Below, in pieces: positions 19,488 to 27,868 of a stretch of DNA of 51,236 nt. The stretch spans positions 1 to 51,236 of the forward strand of contig JBFLZU010000065.1 in the NCBI GenBank assembly GCA_040756155.1, read 5' to 3'. The first letter of the stretch is position 1. The number at the start of each line of letters is the position of its first letter. The notes under the pieces are model-generated. The model was not told the DNA's origin. It saw only the letters and a program-made list of their open reading frames with translations, and ran no database searches. This DNA comes from Nitrospirota bacterium. Lineage in GTDB: Bacteria; Nitrospirota; Thermodesulfovibrionia; JACRGW01; JBFLZU01. Position numbers and translations under genes: made by a program.

Positions 19488-19904
19488 TTACTTCTCTGAA
19501 TTAGTTTGTTTAACAACATCCTCTTGAACTGCAATCTGGTTTAAGACTTCCTGTGCTGCATTTATCTTTCTGAGTTTCTCTTTGTTCCACTCAAGATACC
19601 TCTTTGCATTCTCTTCTGTAGGATCCTCAAGGAAATCAAGGACTATTTTTGGAGGTACATAGTATCTTATGGAGCCATCAGGAGATATAACAGGTTCAAT
19701 CCAGAGGCTCTCCTTTTGAGACTTGAGATTTGAGATTTGAGATTTCATATTTGAGGATGGTGCTGGTGCTTTCTTAGTTTCTTCCTTGCACTCAGAAAAA
19801 AAGACAATCTTTTTACAGTCAAAGAAGGATACCCCTCTATCTTCTGCAAAAATGGAACTCGGGTATAACAGCAATATTAAGGTTATAAGTATTTTTCTGT
19901 TCAC
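19488..19904 (-). CDS. Secreted 138-aa protein, tentatively TraF N-terminal-region-like
   Basis: Signal peptide MNRKILITLILLLYPSSIFA. DPTEENAKRYLEWNKEKLRK resembles the helical N-terminal part of TraF-type proteins. Contains the heptamer tract. Confidence 0.3.
   Translation of the reverse strand: MNRKILITLILLLYPSSIFAEDRGVSFFDCKKIVFFSECKEETKKAPAPSSNMKSQISNLKSQKESLWIEPVISPDGSIRYYVPPKIVLDFLEDPTEENAKRYLEWNKEKLRKINAAQEVLNQIAVQEDVVKQTNSEK
19716..19757. repeat. Six consecutive 7-bp units (TTGAGAC, TTGAGAT x3, TTCATAT, TTGAGGA) inside a CDS
   Basis: Read directly from the sequence. Encodes ..NMKSQISNLKSQKE.. on the minus strand. Confidence 0.9.
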
Positions 19905-19965: not shown

Positions 19966-20711
19966 TTATTTCTTTTCTAAGTCCTGGTAAATACTACTAA
20001 ATTGATCAAGAGCAGATTCAAGATTTTCAGCAATATCTCTCGCAAGCAAGTCCGGATCTGGAAGGTTTTCAGAATCTTCGAGGCTTTCATCCTTCAGCCA
20101 GAAAATATCAAAACTTACCTTATCCCGTTGGATCAATTCGTTATAAGTGAATGCTCTGAATCGTTCCGTCTCTTTTCTGTTAAAGCGGTTATCCTGGTTA
20201 TAGCATCTGATAAAATCCTGGAGGTCTTCGTATCGCAATGGGTTCGTCTTGAGAGTAAAGTGCTTGTTTGTTCTTAAATCGTATATCCAGAGTATTCTTC
20301 TGCAAAAGCCCTTCGTATATCTCTCCCTTTACATCAATATCTATCCCTACCCATGTCTCATCATTAATGAGCATTATCAATCTCTTGAGTTTTGCAGGGT
20401 CTTGAATCTTATTCTGCGACTTTCTGGAAGATAACCCCAAGCATGCCCTTTTCTTTACCGAGAGACTCAAGGATATGTCTGTAATGGACTTCGAGGACAT
20501 CCCCATCTTTTTCAAGAAGGCTCTGCCAGTCAAGACCCTTCGGGATTGTTGGGGGTTTGTTAAAGGGCGGCCTCGTCTGCTCATCGGCCATCTTGAGGAA
20601 CAAGAGATATGTGAGCTGTTCCACATAGTCGCCATAGCTTACCCCGTCATCACGGAGGACATTGCAGTAATTCCAGAGTCTTTGAACTATTGTTGAAGAT
20701 TCATTAGGCAT
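19966..20711 (-). pseudogene. hsdM: hsdM (type I R-M methyltransferase) pseudogene: frameshift plus loss of the catalytic core
   Basis: Frame 1 gives the HsdM N-terminus (MPNESSTIVQRLWNYCNVLRDDGVSYGDYVEQLTYLLFLKMADE..). A 1-nt shift lies near 20411-20430 (..IFQK / QNKIQDPAKLKRLI..). After YEGLLQKN (~20295) the frame jumps to WIYDLRTNKHFTLKTNPLRYEDLQDF.., the HsdM C-terminal tail. The AdoMet/NPPF core is absent. Confidence 0.75.
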
Positions 20712-21066
20712 GATGTCCTCTACCAGTTTTGATCGTAGCGTAAATTGCTCTAATGTCGGATATGATTTTATCTATTGAAGGCTCTTTACAGGGGATATGT
20801 CCTGAGGGATTTTCATATGGATGATAGTGCCATTCCTTCAAATTATCATATCCGAAGATTCTTTGATCATTCTGTATCAATGCAAAATCCATGCGCTCGT
20901 TTCTTGCATTATATCGCACTGCAAGGAAAAGGTTTTCACCAAAATGGATATTACATTTAAGAGATCTGTGGGTTCTTAAAAGGAATTCGATCTTATACTC
21001 TACGAAATGTTTTTTGAGAGAAGTTGTTATTTCTGAAAGGAAGGCATCAACATTAAGGCTCTTCAT
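20704..21066 (-). CDS. Small protein, tentatively DUF6516/TumE-like toxin family
   Basis: 120 aa. FGYDNLKEWHYHPYENPSGHIP His-rich pattern. 4-bp overlap with the upstream 108-aa ORF. Confidence 0.3.
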   Translation of the reverse strand: MKSLNVDAFLSEITTSLKKHFVEYKIEFLLRTHRSLKCNIHFGENLFLAVRYNARNERMDFALIQNDQRIFGYDNLKEWHYHPYENPSGHIPCKEPSIDKIISDIRAIYATIKTGRGHHA

Positions 21067-21389
21067 TTTTTCTTAAAGCCTTTAAGTTTTGCCAGTGCTG
21101 ATAATAACTCCCTTTTCTCCATCTCTAACATTTCCCAATCTATAAAATCTCCTTCTACCTCATGACCGTGCCTATTCTCAATCTTATCTTCATCCCACAT
21201 CTTTTCGAATTCCTTAAAAGAGACACCATATTTCTCTTCAAATCTCAGTATCTCACGGGTATAGTGCTCTATCCTGTTCTCTATTGCAGAGAGAAGAATA
21301 TCATCTATTTTTTCCTTCAGCGCATTTTCACCAAAGGATTCTACGAGGGCATTGTATATATCTTTGTCTATTTCCAATATATTAGGCAT
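21063..21389 (-). CDS. Small acidic helical protein, possible antitoxin-type partner
   Basis: 108 aa. RFEEKYGVSFKEFEKMWDE pattern, seen in small antitoxin-like proteins. Translationally coupled to 20704-21066. Confidence 0.3.
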   Translation of the reverse strand: MPNILEIDKDIYNALVESFGENALKEKIDDILLSAIENRIEHYTREILRFEEKYGVSFKEFEKMWDEDKIENRHGHEVEGDFIDWEMLEMEKRELLSALAKLKGFKKK

Positions 21390-21453
21390 GGTAACCTCCT
21401 TTTATCTTTTCATATTATAGCAGAAGTTTTATTCCCCCTTATATTTTTCTTTC

Positions 21454-21525
21454 GTAAGGGCGAATGGCCGTTCGCCCTTACATCCGTTTGTCCTGCCATT
21501 TCAATGGGCGTATTGCCATACGCCC
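21454..21525. repeat. Two REP-like GC-rich hairpins downstream of the RAYT remnant
   Basis: GTAAGGGCGAA-TGGCCG-TTCGCCCTTAC (21454-21481, 11-bp stem). GGGCGTA-TTGCCA-TACGCCC (21506-21525, 7-bp stem). Confidence 0.8.
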
Positions 21526-21530
21526 TTAGA

Positions 21531-21827
21531 TTATTTCTTTCTGTTCGGATTCTCCTCATCTTCATCCCATTTCAAGGGATTATATCTGATGTATTCACGG
21601 ATAGAATTTAATTCATTTTCATTGCGAATTATGTGTTCGTAATAATTGCGTTGCCAGAGTATAGCCGACCGTTCCACATTATTTTGATTTATCCATTTTA
21701 AATATTCGGTTGAAACCATTGATTTAAATACACCAACGATATTTCCTAATGTAGGGGCAGGGCTTGCCCCTGCCCTTTTATTTGTTATTTCATTATTTTG
21801 GGCAACCGCAAGGGTTGCCCCTACATT
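21531..21827 (-). pseudogene. 3' remnant of an IS200-like / REP-associated tyrosine transposase (RAYT-type) gene
   Basis: Open frame ..NVGATLAVAQNNEITNKRAGASPAPTLGNIVGVFKSMVSTEYLKWINQ..LWQRNYYEHIIRNENELNSIREYIRYNPLKWDEDE. This is the C-terminal YEHIIRNE..IREYI.NNP..W signature only; the N-terminal HUH/Tyr domain is absent. The frame starts at the hsdR' stop. Confidence 0.6.
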
Positions 21828-21828
21828 T

Positions 21829-22905
21829 TTAATCCATTACAAGGTTCTGATTGAAAAACCCAAGGGTTTGTTTTGAAGGAGTCGCAGTAAGTCCTATAAT
21901 AAAGGCATCAAAATACTCAAGAACCTGTCTCCATAAGTTATAGATAGAACGGTGGCATTCATCAGTAATGATAAAATCAAAGGTTTCAATTGGAATCTGA
22001 GGATTGTATAAAACCTGTAGGGGCGGGCTGACCACATCCCTATCGTATTCAAATATTGATCGCTCTTCAAGTTCGGCGTCAAATTCAGGTTCCCCTTTGA
22101 GCATGGAATAAAGCCTTTGAATGGTTGTAATGCACACCCGGCTTACAGGGTCGAGTGTGTTTGTGGTGAGGTGCTGAACATTATAAAGCTCTGTAAACTT
22201 TCTGCCGTCATCAGGGGTTATATACTGCTGGAATTCCTTTCTCGTCTGGCGACCGAGATTGTTTCGGTCAACTAAGAAAAGCACTCTTTTTGCATTCGCA
22301 AATTTTATTAACCTGTAAATGAAACTTACAGCAGTATAAGTCTTTCCTCCGCCTGATGCCATCTGGATGAGCGCCCTCTGTCTTGCCTCTGCAAAGGATT
22401 TTTCAAGGTTCTGAATTGCCTCAATCTGACAATCCCTTAAGCCTTCAGTTATCAAAATAGGCATGTTCGTAAGCCTTGCTCTCAGGGTGTTGCCCTGTGA
22501 AAGCCATTCGTTAAGTGTTTCAGGCTTATGAAAGGCAAATACCCTTCGAGAGCGTGGGGTAGGGTCTCTCAAATCCCTGAAAAAGGTTTCTATACCTGTG
22601 CTCTCATAGGCAAAGGGAAGGGGTTCGTGAACATGTGGTAAATCTTTAGGAAGACCATACAGATAGGCTTCAGATTGCTCAGCAACACCGCTTAATGTGG
22701 TACCTTCAGGCTTTGCCTCCATAACTCCAACAGCTCTTCTATCCACAAAAAGCAGATAATCTGCGAGTCCCGATTCAAGTGGGAATTCACGGAGAGCCAC
22801 GCCAAGAGAAGCACCAAGATTTAATTCCTGTAAGTCCTGAACCCTCCAGCCTGCCATCTCAAGCAGTTGGTCGATATGTCGCCGTGCTTTCTCCTCAGGT
22901 TCCAT
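21829..22905 (-). pseudogene. hsdR: Truncated hsdR-type (type I/III restriction helicase-nuclease) gene, N-terminal ~358 aa only
   Basis: MEPEEKARRHIDQLLEMAGWRV N-terminal nuclease-domain pattern, Walker A QMASGGGKTYTA, FIITDECHRS (DEAH-type), LTATP. It stops just after motif III; the helicase C-lobe and C-terminal domains are missing. Confidence 0.7.
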
Positions 22906-23195
22906 GCTAATAACCTTTCTCTACATCTTATATAAGCATCGCCATTTTGTATAACCTAAAGGTTGTATGAAACTCTTGTAAGTTCTCCTTTTATTGCTAT
23001 AATTATACTCACAAAATTAAAGATGTAAAGGAAGAATAATTGGCTTATGTAGGAGGAATTGCTCGGAGTAAGGAGGTCTTCAAGTTATTGTGCAGTTAAC
23101 TTTAGAGATCGGGGGGTAATGGAATATCAAGTATCTTTGCCATAGCTATGTAAAAAGAGTCATACTGGTTAGGACATCACTAGAGTAACTGTCCT

Positions 23196-23768
23196 TTATG
23201 GAAGATACCTTCCAAGTTTCGGTTGTCCATAAACCTTATGAAACTTACCATCTCTGACAAATACAAAGGCTGGAATCTTTTCAATCTTAAACATCTCGAT
23301 CTCCTCCCCAGGGATATGAATAACCATATCATCACCCCATTGTTTCTTAAGTTCCATAAATCGTTTCCCATCAAACACCGTTGAGAATATCTTCACATCG
23401 TAATCAGGATGACTCTTTGAAAATTCATTTGCTGTCTTTATAGCACCAATGCTGTAAGGACAATCACCAACGAATACATAGAGTATCTTCTTCTCCTGAA
23501 TTTCCCTTTTCAGAAACTCCCTTTGGGCATCTTTTATAAGATTATCAACCTCTTGTTGTGGAGATACCTGAGAATCAGATTTGAGACTTCGTCGTGAGCG
23601 CTCAGCCGAACGATTTGAGATTTGAGATTTCTTGCTTTTAACTTCTGACTTCTGACTTTTTACTAAAGGATTAGTAAAGATATCCGCATGTGTAATATCT
23701 ATAGTAAAGGCACACCAGTAAAAGAGCCAGGCGTAACACAGCAACAGACCTTTCGCCAGTAAACCCAT
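23196..23768 (-). CDS. Periplasmic thioredoxin-fold protein, F-type TraF/TrbB-like, with CxxS active-site variant
   Basis: Start taken at Met26 of the track ORF (23768), giving signal-like MGLLAKGLLLCYAWLFYWCAF. KILYVFVGDCPYSIGA and IEKIPAFVFV (thioredoxin beta1-CxxS and cis-Pro region). Carries the repeat insert at 23575-23634. Confidence 0.5.
   Translation of the reverse strand: MGLLAKGLLLCYAWLFYWCAFTIDITHADIFTNPLVKSQKSEVKSKKSQISNRSAERSRRSLKSDSQVSPQQEVDNLIKDAQREFLKREIQEKKILYVFVGDCPYSIGAIKTANEFSKSHPDYDVKIFSTVFDGKRFMELKKQWGDDMVIHIPGEEIEMFKIEKIPAFVFVRDGKFHKVYGQPKLGRYLP
23575..23634. repeat. Composite repeat: heptamer tract interrupted by a 26-nt imperfect palindrome (copy 1)
   Basis: TTGAGAC (23581-23587), then TTCGTCGTGAGCGCTCAGCCGAACGA (23588-23613; perfect 10-nt core TGAGCGCTCA), then TTTGAGA x2 (23614-23627). 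In frame within the CDS (..KSQISNRSAERSRRSLKSD..). Confidence 0.9.
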
Positions 23769-24694
23769 ATATAACCTCCTACCTCTGGTGGTAATGCTGT
23801 GGCAAAATCCCACGATGCAGGGCTCTGTCCTATCTTTATACACCCAGAAGATCGTGGAAAGACCATCTGCAATTTATCATCTTGGGTGGGCTGGAAGTGA
23901 AGGGGAATGAACCCTACTCTACCTGTAACAAAGGGTTTTGATGCAACACTTACAGCCCTGAAACAGGTTGCAGCACTTGCAACTGCACTGCTATTGGCAA
24001 TCATAAGTCCAGTTCTCGGATATGTCGCACCCCATGTCCCCATGCATGCATCTTCAACTGATATAGCGTCTCCAATTAATGGAATCCCGCTTAGAGAACA
24101 AATCTGAGAAGCACCTGCGGTAGCAGATGCAAGCCATTTAAATGTAAAATAATCAGCAGCACCAGTCCTCCAGTTAACAATATCTACCTCTGAGAGATAA
24201 TTTACAGCATAAGGAAGTGTGAGGTCTTTTTTGCACAGTCCGAATATTGCCTGAACAGGATTTTTTATATATCCGAGAAATGAAAAAGTCACAACATGGG
24301 CTTCATGGTAGAAGGAATTCGTCTGATAGAATGAACTCGCCCCACCTGCTCCACCAAAAAGAGATGATGCTTCTTTTAAAGGTTCTAAAAGGGTATTAAC
24401 AATGGAAAGGGAACTGCTGAATGGCTGCCTCGGTGTCTCGATAAGTAATACAGGAGACCAGTAGCACATATTTATACCAGGTAAGAGTTTCTTCTTATCA
24501 AGCCAGCATGGTCCAGCCACCTTATACTCAAGGCAACTCTTTACATTAAGTGCTGATGCTAAAGAAGTTATATCAACCGCATAGGCAGAAGAAGTGCTGA
24601 AGATTTGAAGAACTACAGTGCCGAAGCACACTAAGGACTTTAGCACTTCAGCCTTCAGAGCTTGCGTTCTGAGGTTAATCAAAATCCTTCTCAT
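23699..24694 (-). CDS. traU: F-type conjugative transfer protein TraU
   Basis: 331 aa with a signal peptide. CW..MCYW Cys/Trp-rich pattern and GTWGATYPRTG (TraU WG..YPR.G signature). Confidence 0.75.
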   Translation of the reverse strand: MRRILINLRTQALKAEVLKSLVCFGTVVLQIFSTSSAYAVDITSLASALNVKSCLEYKVAGPCWLDKKKLLPGINMCYWSPVLLIETPRQPFSSSLSIVNTLLEPLKEASSLFGGAGGASSFYQTNSFYHEAHVVTFSFLGYIKNPVQAIFGLCKKDLTLPYAVNYLSEVDIVNWRTGAADYFTFKWLASATAGASQICSLSGIPLIGDAISVEDACMGTWGATYPRTGLMIANSSAVASAATCFRAVSVASKPFVTGRVGFIPLHFQPTQDDKLQMVFPRSSGCIKIGQSPASWDFATALPPEVGGYIWVYWRKVCCCVTPGSFTGVPLL

Positions 24695-25202
24695 AAATAA
24701 TCAACTCCTTGCCTGTTACCTCTACAAGGGAGGGGGTGTGTGTTACTCCATACATCTTAAGAATTTCTATAGTAGCTGGTTGCACGGGAATTTCAAGAGA
24801 GACAATGTCAGGTCTCAGTCCACAGTCAACGCAGTAGCCATACCATAAATGAGATTTGAGACTTCGTCGTGAGCGCTCAGTCGAACGATTTGAGATTTTA
24901 GATTTGAGTGATGAAATTTCTTTCTTAGAGAAAAACAGAAACTTGCCAGTGAGGGGAACTTCGTGGGAGAGAGGAATCTTTCTAATATTGGATTTTATTG
25001 CCTGAGGAAGCGATAAAGAGCGTAATTGTACAGACTTTATTGTTATCTGAAATCTGGCATCTGTAATCTGAGTTCTGAGATCTGGGATATTATTAACCCT
25101 GCAGGTAAACCCTTCAGTGCCGATGTCAATAACATCAAAAGGTATGGTAAATATTAGAGTTATAAATACAACATTAAATCTTCTAATTATCTCAAGGAAC
25201 AT
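24675..25202 (-). CDS. Small periplasmic/membrane-anchored CxxC protein at the traW/trbB position (thioredoxin/glutaredoxin-like C-terminus)
   Basis: Start taken at Met17 (25202), because the upstream 48 nt read through two hairpins. GKFLFFS ... WYGYCVDCG ... GVTHTPSLVEV. Contains repeats at 24851-24909 and 25046-25087. Confidence 0.35.
   Translation of the reverse strand: MFLEIIRRFNVVFITLIFTIPFDVIDIGTEGFTCRVNNIPDLRTQITDARFQITIKSVQLRSLSLPQAIKSNIRKIPLSHEVPLTGKFLFFSKKEISSLKSKISNRSTERSRRSLKSHLWYGYCVDCGLRPDIVSLEIPVQPATIEILKMYGVTHTPSLVEVTGKELIIYEKDFD
24851..24909. repeat. Composite repeat copy 2 (same orientation as 23575-23634)
   Basis: GAGATTTGAGAC, then TTCGTCGTGAGCGCTCAGTCGAACGA (24863-24888; 25/26 identical to copy 1), then TTTGAGA TTTTAGA TTTGAGT. 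In frame (..KSKISNRSTERSRRSLKSH..). Confidence 0.9.
25046..25087. repeat. Six consecutive degenerate heptamers TCTGNNN (opposite orientation to TTTGAGA tracts)
   Basis: TCTGAAA TCTGGCA TCTGTAA TCTGAGT TCTGAGA TCTGGGA, read directly from the sequence. Inside the same CDS (..LRTQITDARFQITIKS..). Confidence 0.85.
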
Positions 25203-25229
25203 TTTTGACTGAACCAAAAAGAAAAATAG

Positions 25230-25269
25230 GTCAGGCATCTTGCCTGACATCCGAGGCAGGATGCCTCGG
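25230..25269 (-). terminator. Two adjacent 8-bp-stem hairpins followed by a U-tract on the minus-strand transcript (terminator/attenuator candidate between traC and the next gene)
   Basis: GTCAGGCA-TCT-TGCCTGAC (25230-25248) and CCGAGGCA-GGA-TGCCTCGG (25251-25269). The minus-strand RNA continues CUAUUUUUCUUUUUGG just before ATG 25202. Confidence 0.4.
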
Positions 25270-25405: not shown

Positions 25406-27868
25406 TCAGTATGACACCCCATATGGATTCTCTCTTGCAGCGGTCATTATTGCATCTCTTAGCCCGTATTCCTTCTCAAGCCTGCTGAGATACGCCTTAT
25501 CCTGGTCTCTTGATGTGGTTACCCAGTAACTGAATGGGTCAAGCAGAACCCTCACAATTGTGCACCATCCTTCCGTCTTTATAAGTATCTCGTTGAAGTT
25601 CCTCTGTTTCGTTAGCGTCCTGTAATACGACAAAACCCCATCTGAAAGACCGAGTGCTTCCCTGTTTCTCTCAATAGTGTCTACATTCTGCGTAAGGAGT
25701 ATCTTATTAGGGCAGTTATCCTTAAGCACCTCAGCTACACCTTTGAAGTCATCGAGCTGTTGAGTAACAAAGATAACAGCACATCCAAAACTTCTAAAAG
25801 TTTTTACAACCTCAACAAGAAACATGAGGGTGATAGGGTCATTGAAGAGTTGCCATGCCTCATCTATTATGAGGTATTTCATTACGCCAGGATTCTTTTT
25901 GACAAACTGCTTGATGTAATAGATAAGAAGCATCACATTCACTGCAAAGAAATCTTTGTAGAGGTCAATATCGCCGAGCTGAAAACTTATAAGCCTGTTC
26001 CCCTTGAAGTCAAGCGGTGGCTTATCCCCACTGTAAAACCGTGCATATTGACCATCGCCGTAGAACGGTTTTATCTTTCTTGAAAGCTTGAGCCCGATAT
26101 CATCCTTCCTTTTAAGTATCTCTGCAACTGTCTCTATAGACGGACTCTCTGATGAACGGAAGCACTCAAGGACAGACTCACTCAATACCGCCACTTCCTC
26201 CCTTGTAATTGCCTCAGTCCCTCCTGTAGCCATCATGGAGAGGAGATGCGTGAGAAACACTCTGTGGTCATCATCCCTATCACCCCTGAAAGGGTCGAGT
26301 ATAAAGTCTATCTCCCCCTCAAATCTTATATGCTGACCACCTGCAAATCTTGTGAGTCTTTCGTATGTGTCTTTCTTATCAATGACAAAGACTATACCGC
26401 CCCTTGCAAGTGCCATCATGATGTGTTTTGACATGGTAACGCTCTTTCCTCCCCCTGTCATCCCTGTTACAAGGCAATGAGGGGCGGTGGATGATGTGAA
26501 GCTATCAAACAGATCAAGATAGATTATCTCACCCCTTCGGTTATAGTAGAAATCTGTTACCGATTTTGAGCCAGATGAATTCCTGTACAGTGGAAGCAGA
26601 TCTGCTATGTTTGAACCAAGAAATGTAAATGTCTTCTTAAGGACATCTTTTTCTGATGGCAGTTCTGGGTCATAACTAAGCGGTAATGCTTGAAGGAACA
26701 TCGCAGGAGAATTCATATCCTCCACAATAGGGATTGTGCCAGCAGACTCAAGGAAGCTTACAAATTTTGTAGATTTTGCATCTATCTCTTCATCATCTCC
26801 AAGGATTACAAAGATAAAAGATGCCTTAAAATACTTATCACCTGATGAATAGGTCTTATCAATCAGGCTATCGCACTCTTTCTTGATTATATCTTTCTCA
26901 ACAGCAACATCGCCCATCAGTCCTGCGCTGTGAAGCCATGCAAACGCCTTTCTTCTCTTCATGTAAGATTCCATCTGAGTCTGAGAAGGTTTGAAAAAAT
27001 TTACAGCAAAGATAAAATTATCTGTGATGTCATAAAGGCTTATCCCGTCTGGTTTTTCCTCAAAAAGCATATTGGGCTCTGTCACAAAAACGGTTCTGAA
27101 TTCACCTGCTTCCTCTCTCTGTCTTGCCCCCACTGGAGGCTCTTTAAATGTTATCACCCTCGTCCTTATCCCCTCAAAGACCCATTCGCAGTTCTTCAGT
27201 TCAGGCGAATTGAATAAGAACTTGTTACAGATTGGAGGCAGATGGTTATCCAGAGGTGGAGGTCTTTTAAATGTTGTTCTTGGATTTAATAACCGGTAAT
27301 GGAGATTTATCATATCTTGAGGATAGAATTTTCTATGGGAGATATTGTTCATCGTAAATGTGGACTCTATCTTTTCATCAACCCTGCTCTGCACAGATAT
27401 TCTTGATGTGCCATTATCCCTGAAGGGGAAGTATCTTACAGTGAAAAGTGTAGTTATCGTTTTTGGATAAAAGTTAATCTCATTATAAGAGAAGAATCCC
27501 CTGTATAAAGATTTCTCATACATCTCGAGATTAAAATCAAGAAGTTCTTTCATCGCAGGATTATCCGGTTTCAGGGTGTCTCTTATCTCTTTCTTTATAC
27601 GCTCATTCCCCCTGAATCCAACAGTTATCACTTGATAGAGAAACCCTTCAGGCAGGGAATTTAGAAAATTTTTCAATTTAAAAGAATACCCTTCAAGTTC
27701 AGAGGTTGATCTTCCATCAACAGGAAATCCACCCACCTCCCAGACCTGCCCTATTGAGCCATCCCTGAGGATGAATCTCCCATCCTCATAATCAACAGGG
27801 GTGAAAAGGGAAGTAAATGATTCCCCTGTATCAAAAAACGCCTTCCATGTCTTAAGGGTTATACTCAT
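25406..27868 (-). CDS. traC: F-type TraC / VirB4-family T4SS ATPase
   Basis: Walker A VTGMTGGGKSV and Walker B YLIIDEAWQLF. About 820 aa from Met43 (27868). The 42 upstream codons of the track ORF run through a GC-rich repeat (RPRSPRSPRGRG) and are rejected. Confidence 0.85.
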   Translation of the reverse strand: MSITLKTWKAFFDTGESFTSLFTPVDYEDGRFILRDGSIGQVWEVGGFPVDGRSTSELEGYSFKLKNFLNSLPEGFLYQVITVGFRGNERIKKEIRDTLKPDNPAMKELLDFNLEMYEKSLYRGFFSYNEINFYPKTITTLFTVRYFPFRDNGTSRISVQSRVDEKIESTFTMNNISHRKFYPQDMINLHYRLLNPRTTFKRPPPLDNHLPPICNKFLFNSPELKNCEWVFEGIRTRVITFKEPPVGARQREEAGEFRTVFVTEPNMLFEEKPDGISLYDITDNFIFAVNFFKPSQTQMESYMKRRKAFAWLHSAGLMGDVAVEKDIIKKECDSLIDKTYSSGDKYFKASFIFVILGDDEEIDAKSTKFVSFLESAGTIPIVEDMNSPAMFLQALPLSYDPELPSEKDVLKKTFTFLGSNIADLLPLYRNSSGSKSVTDFYYNRRGEIIYLDLFDSFTSSTAPHCLVTGMTGGGKSVTMSKHIMMALARGGIVFVIDKKDTYERLTRFAGGQHIRFEGEIDFILDPFRGDRDDDHRVFLTHLLSMMATGGTEAITREEVAVLSESVLECFRSSESPSIETVAEILKRKDDIGLKLSRKIKPFYGDGQYARFYSGDKPPLDFKGNRLISFQLGDIDLYKDFFAVNVMLLIYYIKQFVKKNPGVMKYLIIDEAWQLFNDPITLMFLVEVVKTFRSFGCAVIFVTQQLDDFKGVAEVLKDNCPNKILLTQNVDTIERNREALGLSDGVLSYYRTLTKQRNFNEILIKTEGWCTIVRVLLDPFSYWVTTSRDQDKAYLSRLEKEYGLRDAIMTAARENPYGVSY

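Follow-up and report, generated by a model that had tools for sequence, protein, structure and literature searches.

Repeat-bearing genes flanking traU

The DNA analysed here, referred to as the window, is the 51,236-nt contig JBFLZU010000065.1 of a Nitrospirota bacterium (assembly GCA_040756155.1). The region of interest encodes an F-like type IV secretion system (T4SS) with TraC, TraU, TrbI, TraE, a coupling protein and a DsbC-like protein, and a module resembling type II secretion systems and type IV pili (T2SS/T4P-like) lies alongside these genes. The traU gene (23699..24694, minus strand; Pfam PF06834, E 6e-22) is located between two minus-strand genes, each of which contains one copy of a 27-nt element of the small dispersed repeat (SDR) type. 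Copy 1 (ACTTCGTCGTGAGCGCTCAGCCGAACG) was found at 23586..23612 on the plus strand, within the gene downstream of traU, and reads RSAERSRRS on the minus strand. Copy 2 (ACTTCGTCGTGAGCGCTCAGTCGAACG) was found at 24861..24887 on the plus strand, within the gene upstream of traU, and reads RSTERSRRS on the minus strand.

Both copies are embedded in tandem heptamers. The tract around copy 1 (23573..23633, plus strand) runs AATCAG ATTTGAG, 27-mer, ATTTGAG ATTTGAG ATTTCTT and is followed by a short second array, (ACTTCTG)2.5, at 23641-23658. The tract around copy 2 (24847..24908, plus strand) runs AAATGAG ATTTGAG, 27-mer, ATTTGAG ATTTTAG ATTTGAG. The block common to the two copies is 58 nt long (23573-23630 versus 24848-24905, 95% identity); in it the core is preceded by two heptamers of the ATTTGAG type and followed by two to three more. 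The original prediction had placed a 26-mer with heptamer flanks in frame in two neighbouring open reading frames (ORFs), and this was borne out. The 26-mer TTCGTCGTGAGCGCTCAGCCGAACGA was present exactly at 23588-23613 and with one mismatch at 24863-24888, had 0 matches in 100 shuffles of the window, and was bordered on both sides of both copies by ATTTGAG-type heptamers. Moreover, both minus-strand frames are open through the segment RS[A/T]ERSRRS, reading ..SNRSAERSRRSLKS.. and ..SNRSTERSRRSLKS.., and the two repeat-bearing stretches read ..KSQISNRSAERSRRSLKSD.. and ..KSKISNRSTERSRRSLKSH.. over a greater length.

The downstream gene (23196..23768, minus strand) encodes a 190-aa protein with a signal or transmembrane (TM) helix, a repeat-bearing linker and a predicted TraF/DsbE-like thioredoxin-fold domain (CPYS). 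Its start, MGLLAKG, agrees with orthologues beginning MGVLAK. The repeat segment covers approximately residues 38-66, and its linker exceeds that of five positional orthologues by 13 aa. In the structure model (pLDDT 54.5, low confidence), residues 21-68, which include the repeat segment, all scored below 50, suggesting that the segment belongs to a disordered linker that follows the signal or TM helix, where it had been predicted to fall. When this low-confidence model was submitted to Foldseek, the top five matches were thiol-disulfide oxidoreductases of the DsbE/ResA-like type (best E 2e-4), and the matched part was the C-terminal domain. A weak Pfam TraF match (E 0.067) was under the cut-off.

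The upstream gene (24675..25250, minus strand) is a 191-aa ORF, of which a 175-aa form starts at 25202. Its repeat segment follows directly on the beta1-like strand FLFFS, within the stretch SAxDxxSxxxAKxxxxDYGxC of its relatives, which it both occupies and lengthens. Word-based homologue searches with both insert-bearing proteins gave no matches; their relatives were taken from traU neighbourhoods and from a full HMMER scan. The upstream family proved to be very small: the scan of 1.84 billion proteins gave 42 representative clusters at 50% identity, and 23 of these 42 representatives, window protein included, were aligned. The window protein showed 12 extra residues after the IFVFS-like strand, compared with 0 in its relatives save three with 1-3, and all 22 other aligned representatives (22/22) were without the segment. 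In every locus examined, the upstream-family gene was found directly upstream of traU. Relatives of both insert-bearing proteins lack the segment, which supports the insertion that had been proposed. The segment had also been placed between the FLFFS strand and a WYGYCVDC active site. Its position after FLFFS was upheld, but the family consensus is DYGxCIxY, in which, of the two Cys of 'CVDC', the first is nearly invariant and the second is not conserved, and no conserved CxxC active site was present in the family alignment. The structure model of this protein was uninformative (pLDDT 40). The thioredoxin fold that had been assigned to both genes is thus moderately backed for the downstream protein alone. 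In one metagenome contig (L244:4492-5029), the orthologue of the upstream gene was split into two overlapping frames, probably as a result of an indel error made when long reads were assembled.

A third gene of the tra region (19488-19904, minus strand) carries an 'empty' heptamer tract at 19716..19757 (plus strand), TTTGAGA CTTGAGA TTTGAGA TTTGAGA TTTCATA TTTGAGG, which encodes ..SSNMKSQISNLKSQKES... Sequence comparison agreed with the earlier view that this tract is the same heptamer repeat without the core. The third gene product and its positional orthologue (L244:6448-6867) were of the same length (139 versus 138 aa); therefore, the tract replaces linker sequence and adds none. Elsewhere in the region (19966-23100), fragments of a type I restriction-modification system break up the tra gene array, including an N-terminal piece of HsdM (20409-20711) and the N-terminal 358 aa of HsdR (21829-22905). 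A 62-aa ORF at 21531-21719 resembles by eye the C-terminal tail of RAYT transposases, for which Pfam gave no confirmation, and GTAG-type palindromes at 21748-21827 adjoin this ORF.

A discrete 27-bp unit and its target

A set of 225 non-redundant copies of the element was gathered from public genomes and metagenomes. The conserved unit in this set was the 29-mer G[A/G]CTTCGTCGTGAGCGCTCAG[T/C]CGAACG[A/G], with near-total conservation inside and a sharp drop beyond its ends; in the window it corresponds to 23585-23613 and 24860-24888. The DNA added per insertion was exactly 27 nt, or nine codons, and the predicted core size of 26 nt was refined accordingly to a conserved unit of 29 nt with 27 nt inserted. 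Removal of 27 nt restored the heptamer phase in 19 of 24 arrays, compared with 7-12 of 23-24 arrays when 26 or 28 nt were removed, and in the tract of window copy 1 the heptamer phase runs on once the 27 nt are taken out. Two linked variants were dominant. The variant A..T..A accounted for 174 of the 225 copies and was found mostly in AT-rich hosts, and the variant G..C..G accounted for 40, mostly in GC-rich hosts. Window copy 2 is the commonest variant, A..T..A, and window copy 1 is the sole A..C..A hybrid in the set. The terminal GA..GA or GG..GG could have arisen by duplication of 2 bp of the target, in which case the core would measure 25 bp.

The element has the dyad symmetry TTCG-n3-TGAGC|GCTCA-n2-CGAA. 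Its single-strand fold was estimated at about -3 kcal/mol, no better than that of shuffled sequence, and a stable hairpin was rejected on this ground. The description of the core as palindromic thus holds for the short dyad TGAGC|GCTCA and does not extend to a stable stem-loop. The symmetry looks more like that of a duplex recognition site than that of a hairpin. Rfam gave no match covering the element.

Filled and empty sites were compared at several loci. A genome-wide search with the 26-mer gave a third copy in the host genome at C59:23230-23255, showing that it is not unique to the two tra sites. This copy lies inside a repeat of approximately 250 bp (C59:23131-23380) resembling a miniature inverted-repeat transposable element (MITE), with terminal repeats GGGACGGTTCTATTTTCT. 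Near-identical paralogues of this MITE-like repeat, at C59:54231-54435 and on contig C125, are without exactly those 27 nt, and the filled/empty comparison gave 198 matches and 7 mismatches outside indels. In Brocadiaceae, a gene for a PurS-PurL fusion contains a heptamer tract in its inter-domain linker. Two of these sequences (L251 and L252, 963 aa) carry the 27-mer at one heptamer junction, where it reads LRRERSVER, and the sequences nearest to them (L253 and L254, 954 aa, with 89% identity across the 256-aa query) are without exactly 27 nt. An independent insertion one heptamer upstream, reading FVVSAQSND, was found in L257, and L258, the most similar sequence to L257 at this site, was empty. 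Insertion polymorphism between related loci was therefore present both among purL orthologues and among MITE-like paralogues in the host genome. Moreover, three head-to-tail copies at 27-nt spacing were found in a Leptolyngbyaceae metagenome-assembled genome (MAG; G075:C123:210-292). The exact 27-nt filled/empty pairs and the restoration of phase supported the proposal of a small discrete element nested in heptamer tracts, and they show that it is inserted as a single block of 27 bp.

Some of these host repeats have features of their own. The MITE-like family gave 25 matches to its terminal repeat GGGACGGTTCTATTTTCT in the host genome (at most 2 mismatches, both strands). Its members include C59:23131-23380, C59:54231-54435, C61:121-267 and C125:~26950-27218, with several levels of nesting. 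Some copies hold a hairpin module flanked by GGGACTGTCCC, a motif with 34 occurrences in the genome, and in one MITE-like copy it is this module that holds the 27-mer. A second tiny dispersed repeat of 18 nt, CAATCGAAGATCGCGAAG, has 16 copies at up to 2 mismatches, including C59:23298-23315, and is present in some MITE-like copies and absent from others. In a Chloroflexi MAG (L070:4171-4277), two copies of the element lie 78 nt apart within a repeated coding unit. The purL linkers of L251-L275 contain a heptamer-built segment, ISDSGFRxxDFxxH, whose length is conserved in most sampled Brocadiaceae genomes, which suggests that these linkers are long-lived coding heptamer arrays.

The sites chosen by the element were examined after removal of the 27 nt. 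The resulting junctions were mostly of the form xxG|ATT, with CAG|ATT at 54 sites, TGG|ATT at 23 and others making up the rest. Heptamer arrays hosted 37 of the 225 copies (16%), compared with 2 of 900 random sites (0.2%), and a position between inverted repeats of at least 7 bp was occupied by 45 of the 225 copies (20%), compared with 21 of 900 random sites (2.3%). The orientation of the element was fixed relative to the target. Copies were also present in stems resembling repetitive extragenic palindromic (REP) elements, in hairpin loops, and in heptamers such as AAGGCAG and ATTTTGG. These results show that the element prefers RG|ATT-type junctions that lie in tandem arrays of heptamers or are flanked by short inverted repeats.

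In the host, heptamer arrays occur throughout the genome. Perfect arrays with a length of 21 nt or more number in the dozens (about 65 listed; for example C10:13137-13176, C111:7684-7724 and C70:2239-2271), with many different units, and most of them lie inside long ORFs and in frame. The host genome also has seven PF05635 genes, which encode four-helix bundles of the type found in 23S rRNA intervening sequences (IVS). One of these, C98:1520-1837 (region C98:1453-1837), has (GAGATTT)3 in front of it, a heptamer shared with the tra genes, and contains TCTCAAATCTGAAAT in its 3' part. Such GAGATTT heptamers precede 1 of the 7 genes, and 1 of the 7 has other period-7 runs nearby; the association of PF05635 with heptamers is suggestive only.

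With regard to coding behaviour, two of the six frames of the element contain TGA, and the other four are stop-free, reading RS[T/A]ERSRRS, VRLSAHDE, FVVSAQ[S/P]N and LRRERS[V/A]ER. All four open frames are in use among gene-borne copies. Stop-free frames of at least 150 codons contained 80 of the 225 copies, compared with 78% of random 27-mers, indicating that the element is depleted in genes and not excluded from them. Confirmed gene hosts included those for PurS-PurL, TruD and a nonribosomal peptide synthetase (NRPS). Because 27 nt equal nine codons and four of six frames are stop-free, the element can persist in genes at tolerant linkers.

Distribution across bacterial phyla

The exact 22-base core was found, among the matches listed, in more than 120 contigs of a collection with one genome per species and likewise in more than 120 contigs from metagenomes, and by our own estimate about 0.07 matches would be expected by chance in the genome collection. 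Nearly letter-identical copies occur in at least seven bacterial phyla, and in this the element resembles mobile DNA, of which it would be among the smallest kinds. The carriers include Brocadiaceae and other Planctomycetota; the cyanobacteria Nostoc, Fischerella, Calothrix, Westiellopsis, Rivularia, Leptolyngbyaceae and Acaryochloris, heterocystous ones among them; Chloroflexota (Anaerolineae, Dehalococcoidia and others); and Ignavibacteriales, Nitrospinae, Omnitrophota and Magasanikbacteria (Patescibacteria). Twenty carrier genomes had 1-30 copies each, mostly with 0-2 mismatches and with lineage-specific sub-variants, and a reversed-pattern control gave 0 copies. The Fischerella, Nostoc, Calothrix and Westiellopsis genomes that were checked held 10-29 copies of the very same 27-mer.

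In the host's own phylum, on the other hand, 3 of 301 genomes carried the element, and it was found in none of the 60 nearest relatives of the host (0/60). This near-absence suggests that the element arrived horizontally. In a search of 72,556 plasmid records, it was found only in a few cyanobacterial plasmids; in the conjugative Acaryochloris plasmid pREB1, a copy lies inside an annotated NRPS gene. A search of 50,697 phage records gave 0 matches, and one IMG/VR contig carried the element.

Relation to known elements and mode of spread

Among known elements, the small dispersed repeats of cyanobacteria are the closest kind. In Nostoc punctiforme and its relatives, SDR1-8 are reported to be nested in heptameric tandem repeats and to be about 21-27 nt long. 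The likeness is one of behaviour. A net insertion of 27 nt without coding capacity falls in the 21-27 nt class, near-identical copies are dispersed within genomes and nested in heptamer arrays and other repeats, and the insert is present or absent between related loci. The 27-mer differs in that it extends well beyond cyanobacteria, to at least seven phyla, lies inside conjugation and housekeeping genes, and is an exact, frame-neutral insertion of 27 nt. Passages of PMC3116915 and PMC2884548 cite the title of Elhai et al. 2008 (Genome Res 18:1484) on small dispersed repeats, and one in PMC2884548 gives a size of 'some 20 bp' for such repeats. The sequence string of the element was not found in the searchable literature. 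Cyanobacterial short tandemly repeated repetitive (STRR) heptamers and heptanucleotide contingency repeats are tandem heptamers like the host tracts. They match the target and not the 27-mer, and differ in turn from the arrays of the host genome, which are mostly coding and length-neutral.

Other families of small repeats were also considered. Rickettsia palindromic elements (RPEs) are robust palindromes of about 100-150 bp and are known only from Rickettsia. They are selfish repeats that occur in frame in protein-coding genes and are tolerated there (PMC3733652). The original prediction had pointed to a resemblance to RPEs; this was retained for the in-frame, tolerated insertion only, and the element differs from them in size (27 nt), sequence, weak hairpin and multi-phylum range. 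Membership was rejected because both size and taxon differ. REP and REPIN elements are short, palindromic, dispersed and sometimes intragenic, and are characterised by GTAG or CGTC tags and RAYT transposases (PMC3733652, PMC3116915). RAYT-like ORFs were found within 2.5 kb at just 4 of approximately 240 loci, and membership in this class was rejected accordingly; the element is often inserted into GTAG REPs and is not itself one. CGTC-type REPs likewise have no known transposase (PMC3733652, PMC3116915), and the 29-mer has CGTC just before the dyad. However, these REPs comprise the tag, a stem of 8-9 bp, a loop of 4-5 nt and a CCA tail, whereas the element has a 5-bp dyad without a loop or such a tail, and this geometry does not fit. 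MITEs are derived from insertion sequences (IS) and have a length of 70-300 bp with terminal inverted repeats of 15-30 bp. The element was not assigned to this class, as it is 27 nt long and its inverted pairs flank ordinary genes.

These results suggest that the window copies are, with high probability, members of a multi-phylum family of ultra-small non-coding dispersed repeats that adds 27 bp per insertion. In the window, the element would have landed in ATTTGAG arrays that were already present in linker-like parts of the two genes on either side of traU, both of them for periplasmic T4SS accessory proteins, and the third gene would have kept its heptamer array uninterrupted. Insertion may occur in trans, by an enzyme for which the dyad-symmetric core, in double-stranded form, is the recognition site, and which acts at RG|ATT junctions and is neither self-encoded nor hairpin-dependent; no gene or transposase encoded in cis accompanied the element. 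Copies landing in the two TGA frames would be cleared by purifying selection. The family may have arrived horizontally in the host lineage on mobile DNA, for which conjugative elements like that of the window are plausible vehicles.

Several observations weigh against this reading. No enzyme was found, and no gene recurred beside the copies when the 2,975 ORFs within 2.5 kb were clustered all against all, which gave common families such as sensor kinases and four RAYT-like ORFs. The element could not be taken for an IS terminal repeat either, as inverted pairs (L146, L197) enclose ordinary genes and not transposases. The tra copies have no closely related empty site, the nearest TraU being 37% identical; therefore, the tra insertions are deduced from distant relatives and from the behaviour of the family elsewhere. 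The 58-nt blocks are alike in their flanks, so one tra copy could be templated from the other. Finally, some phylum assignments depend on MAG binning, and with just three copies in the host genome, activity there is putative.

A bolder form of this proposal is tentative and rather less likely to be correct. It holds that the 27-mer is a now-active mobile DNA of 25-27 bp, among the smallest known, and that a horizontally shared enzyme moves it in trans into heptamer arrays and hairpin repeats, at their RG|ATT junctions. A length divisible by three and four stop-free frames would then be an adaptation to life inside genes, and conjugative elements like that of the window, as well as pREB1, would carry it between phyla.

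Alternatively, the element may have no dedicated machinery and spread by ectopic gene conversion or recombination, with heptamer arrays as homology arms and one tra copy templated from the other. The tra copies share 55 of 58 nt, flanks included, and empty purL tracts hold ACTTCGG heptamers resembling the left end of the element, as this explanation would lead one to expect. However, the same exact 27-nt unit was found in mutually dissimilar flanks (the C59 MITE-like repeat at CAG|AAT, REP-like stems, hairpin loops, AAGGCAG, ATTTTGG), with boundaries constant to the base, and we consider recombination alone an unlikely source of the copies. More improbable still is the view that the sequence, which has AGCGCT in TGAGCGCTCA, serves a regulator, methylase or recombinase as a functional site, for example for binding or recombination, and is kept by selection in the tra operon. 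The core is dyad-symmetric without a stable hairpin, and the direct copies bracket traU in one reading frame, so that recombination between them would give an in-frame fusion and might permit excision of traU. On the other hand, identical copies occur in unrelated genes and spacers of many phyla, in both orientations and four frames; no link to tra genes was seen elsewhere, the traU loci of relatives are without the segment, and no partner gene was found near the copies. This explanation is speculative and has no direct support. That the genes are neighbours with the repeat in the same frame might suggest a local duplication, or else paralogy of two thioredoxin-like genes that both kept an ancestral peptide. 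This was refuted by the third genomic copy, by the same DNA at hundreds of unrelated places, by the relatives of both proteins without the segment, and by the alignment of the two window proteins with each other over the repeat-encoded stretch only, which excludes a gene duplication.

To our knowledge, the movement of non-coding repeats of about 20-30 nt has awaited an explanation ever since they were described in cyanobacteria. As far as we know, the near-identical spread of such a repeat across phyla, its residence in conjugation genes and the exact pairs of filled and empty sites are new. For the family of 27-bp insertions proposed here, the unit is now sharply delimited, with 27 bp added and 29 bp conserved, and a target motif is available, together with natural filled/empty pairs that include two independent insertions in one purL tract. 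One and the same sequence is shared by distant phyla such as Cyanobacteria, Planctomycetota, Chloroflexota and Patescibacteria. This combination makes it feasible to search for the enzyme by phyletic profiles and to carry out insertion-trap work in culturable Fischerella, Calothrix and Nostoc. Elements of this kind are carried on conjugative DNA, and the proteins that host them gain nine-residue peptides. For annotation, the element accounts for unusual segments, rich in Ser/Arg or of the 'VRLSAHDE' type, within proteins that are conserved elsewhere along their length.

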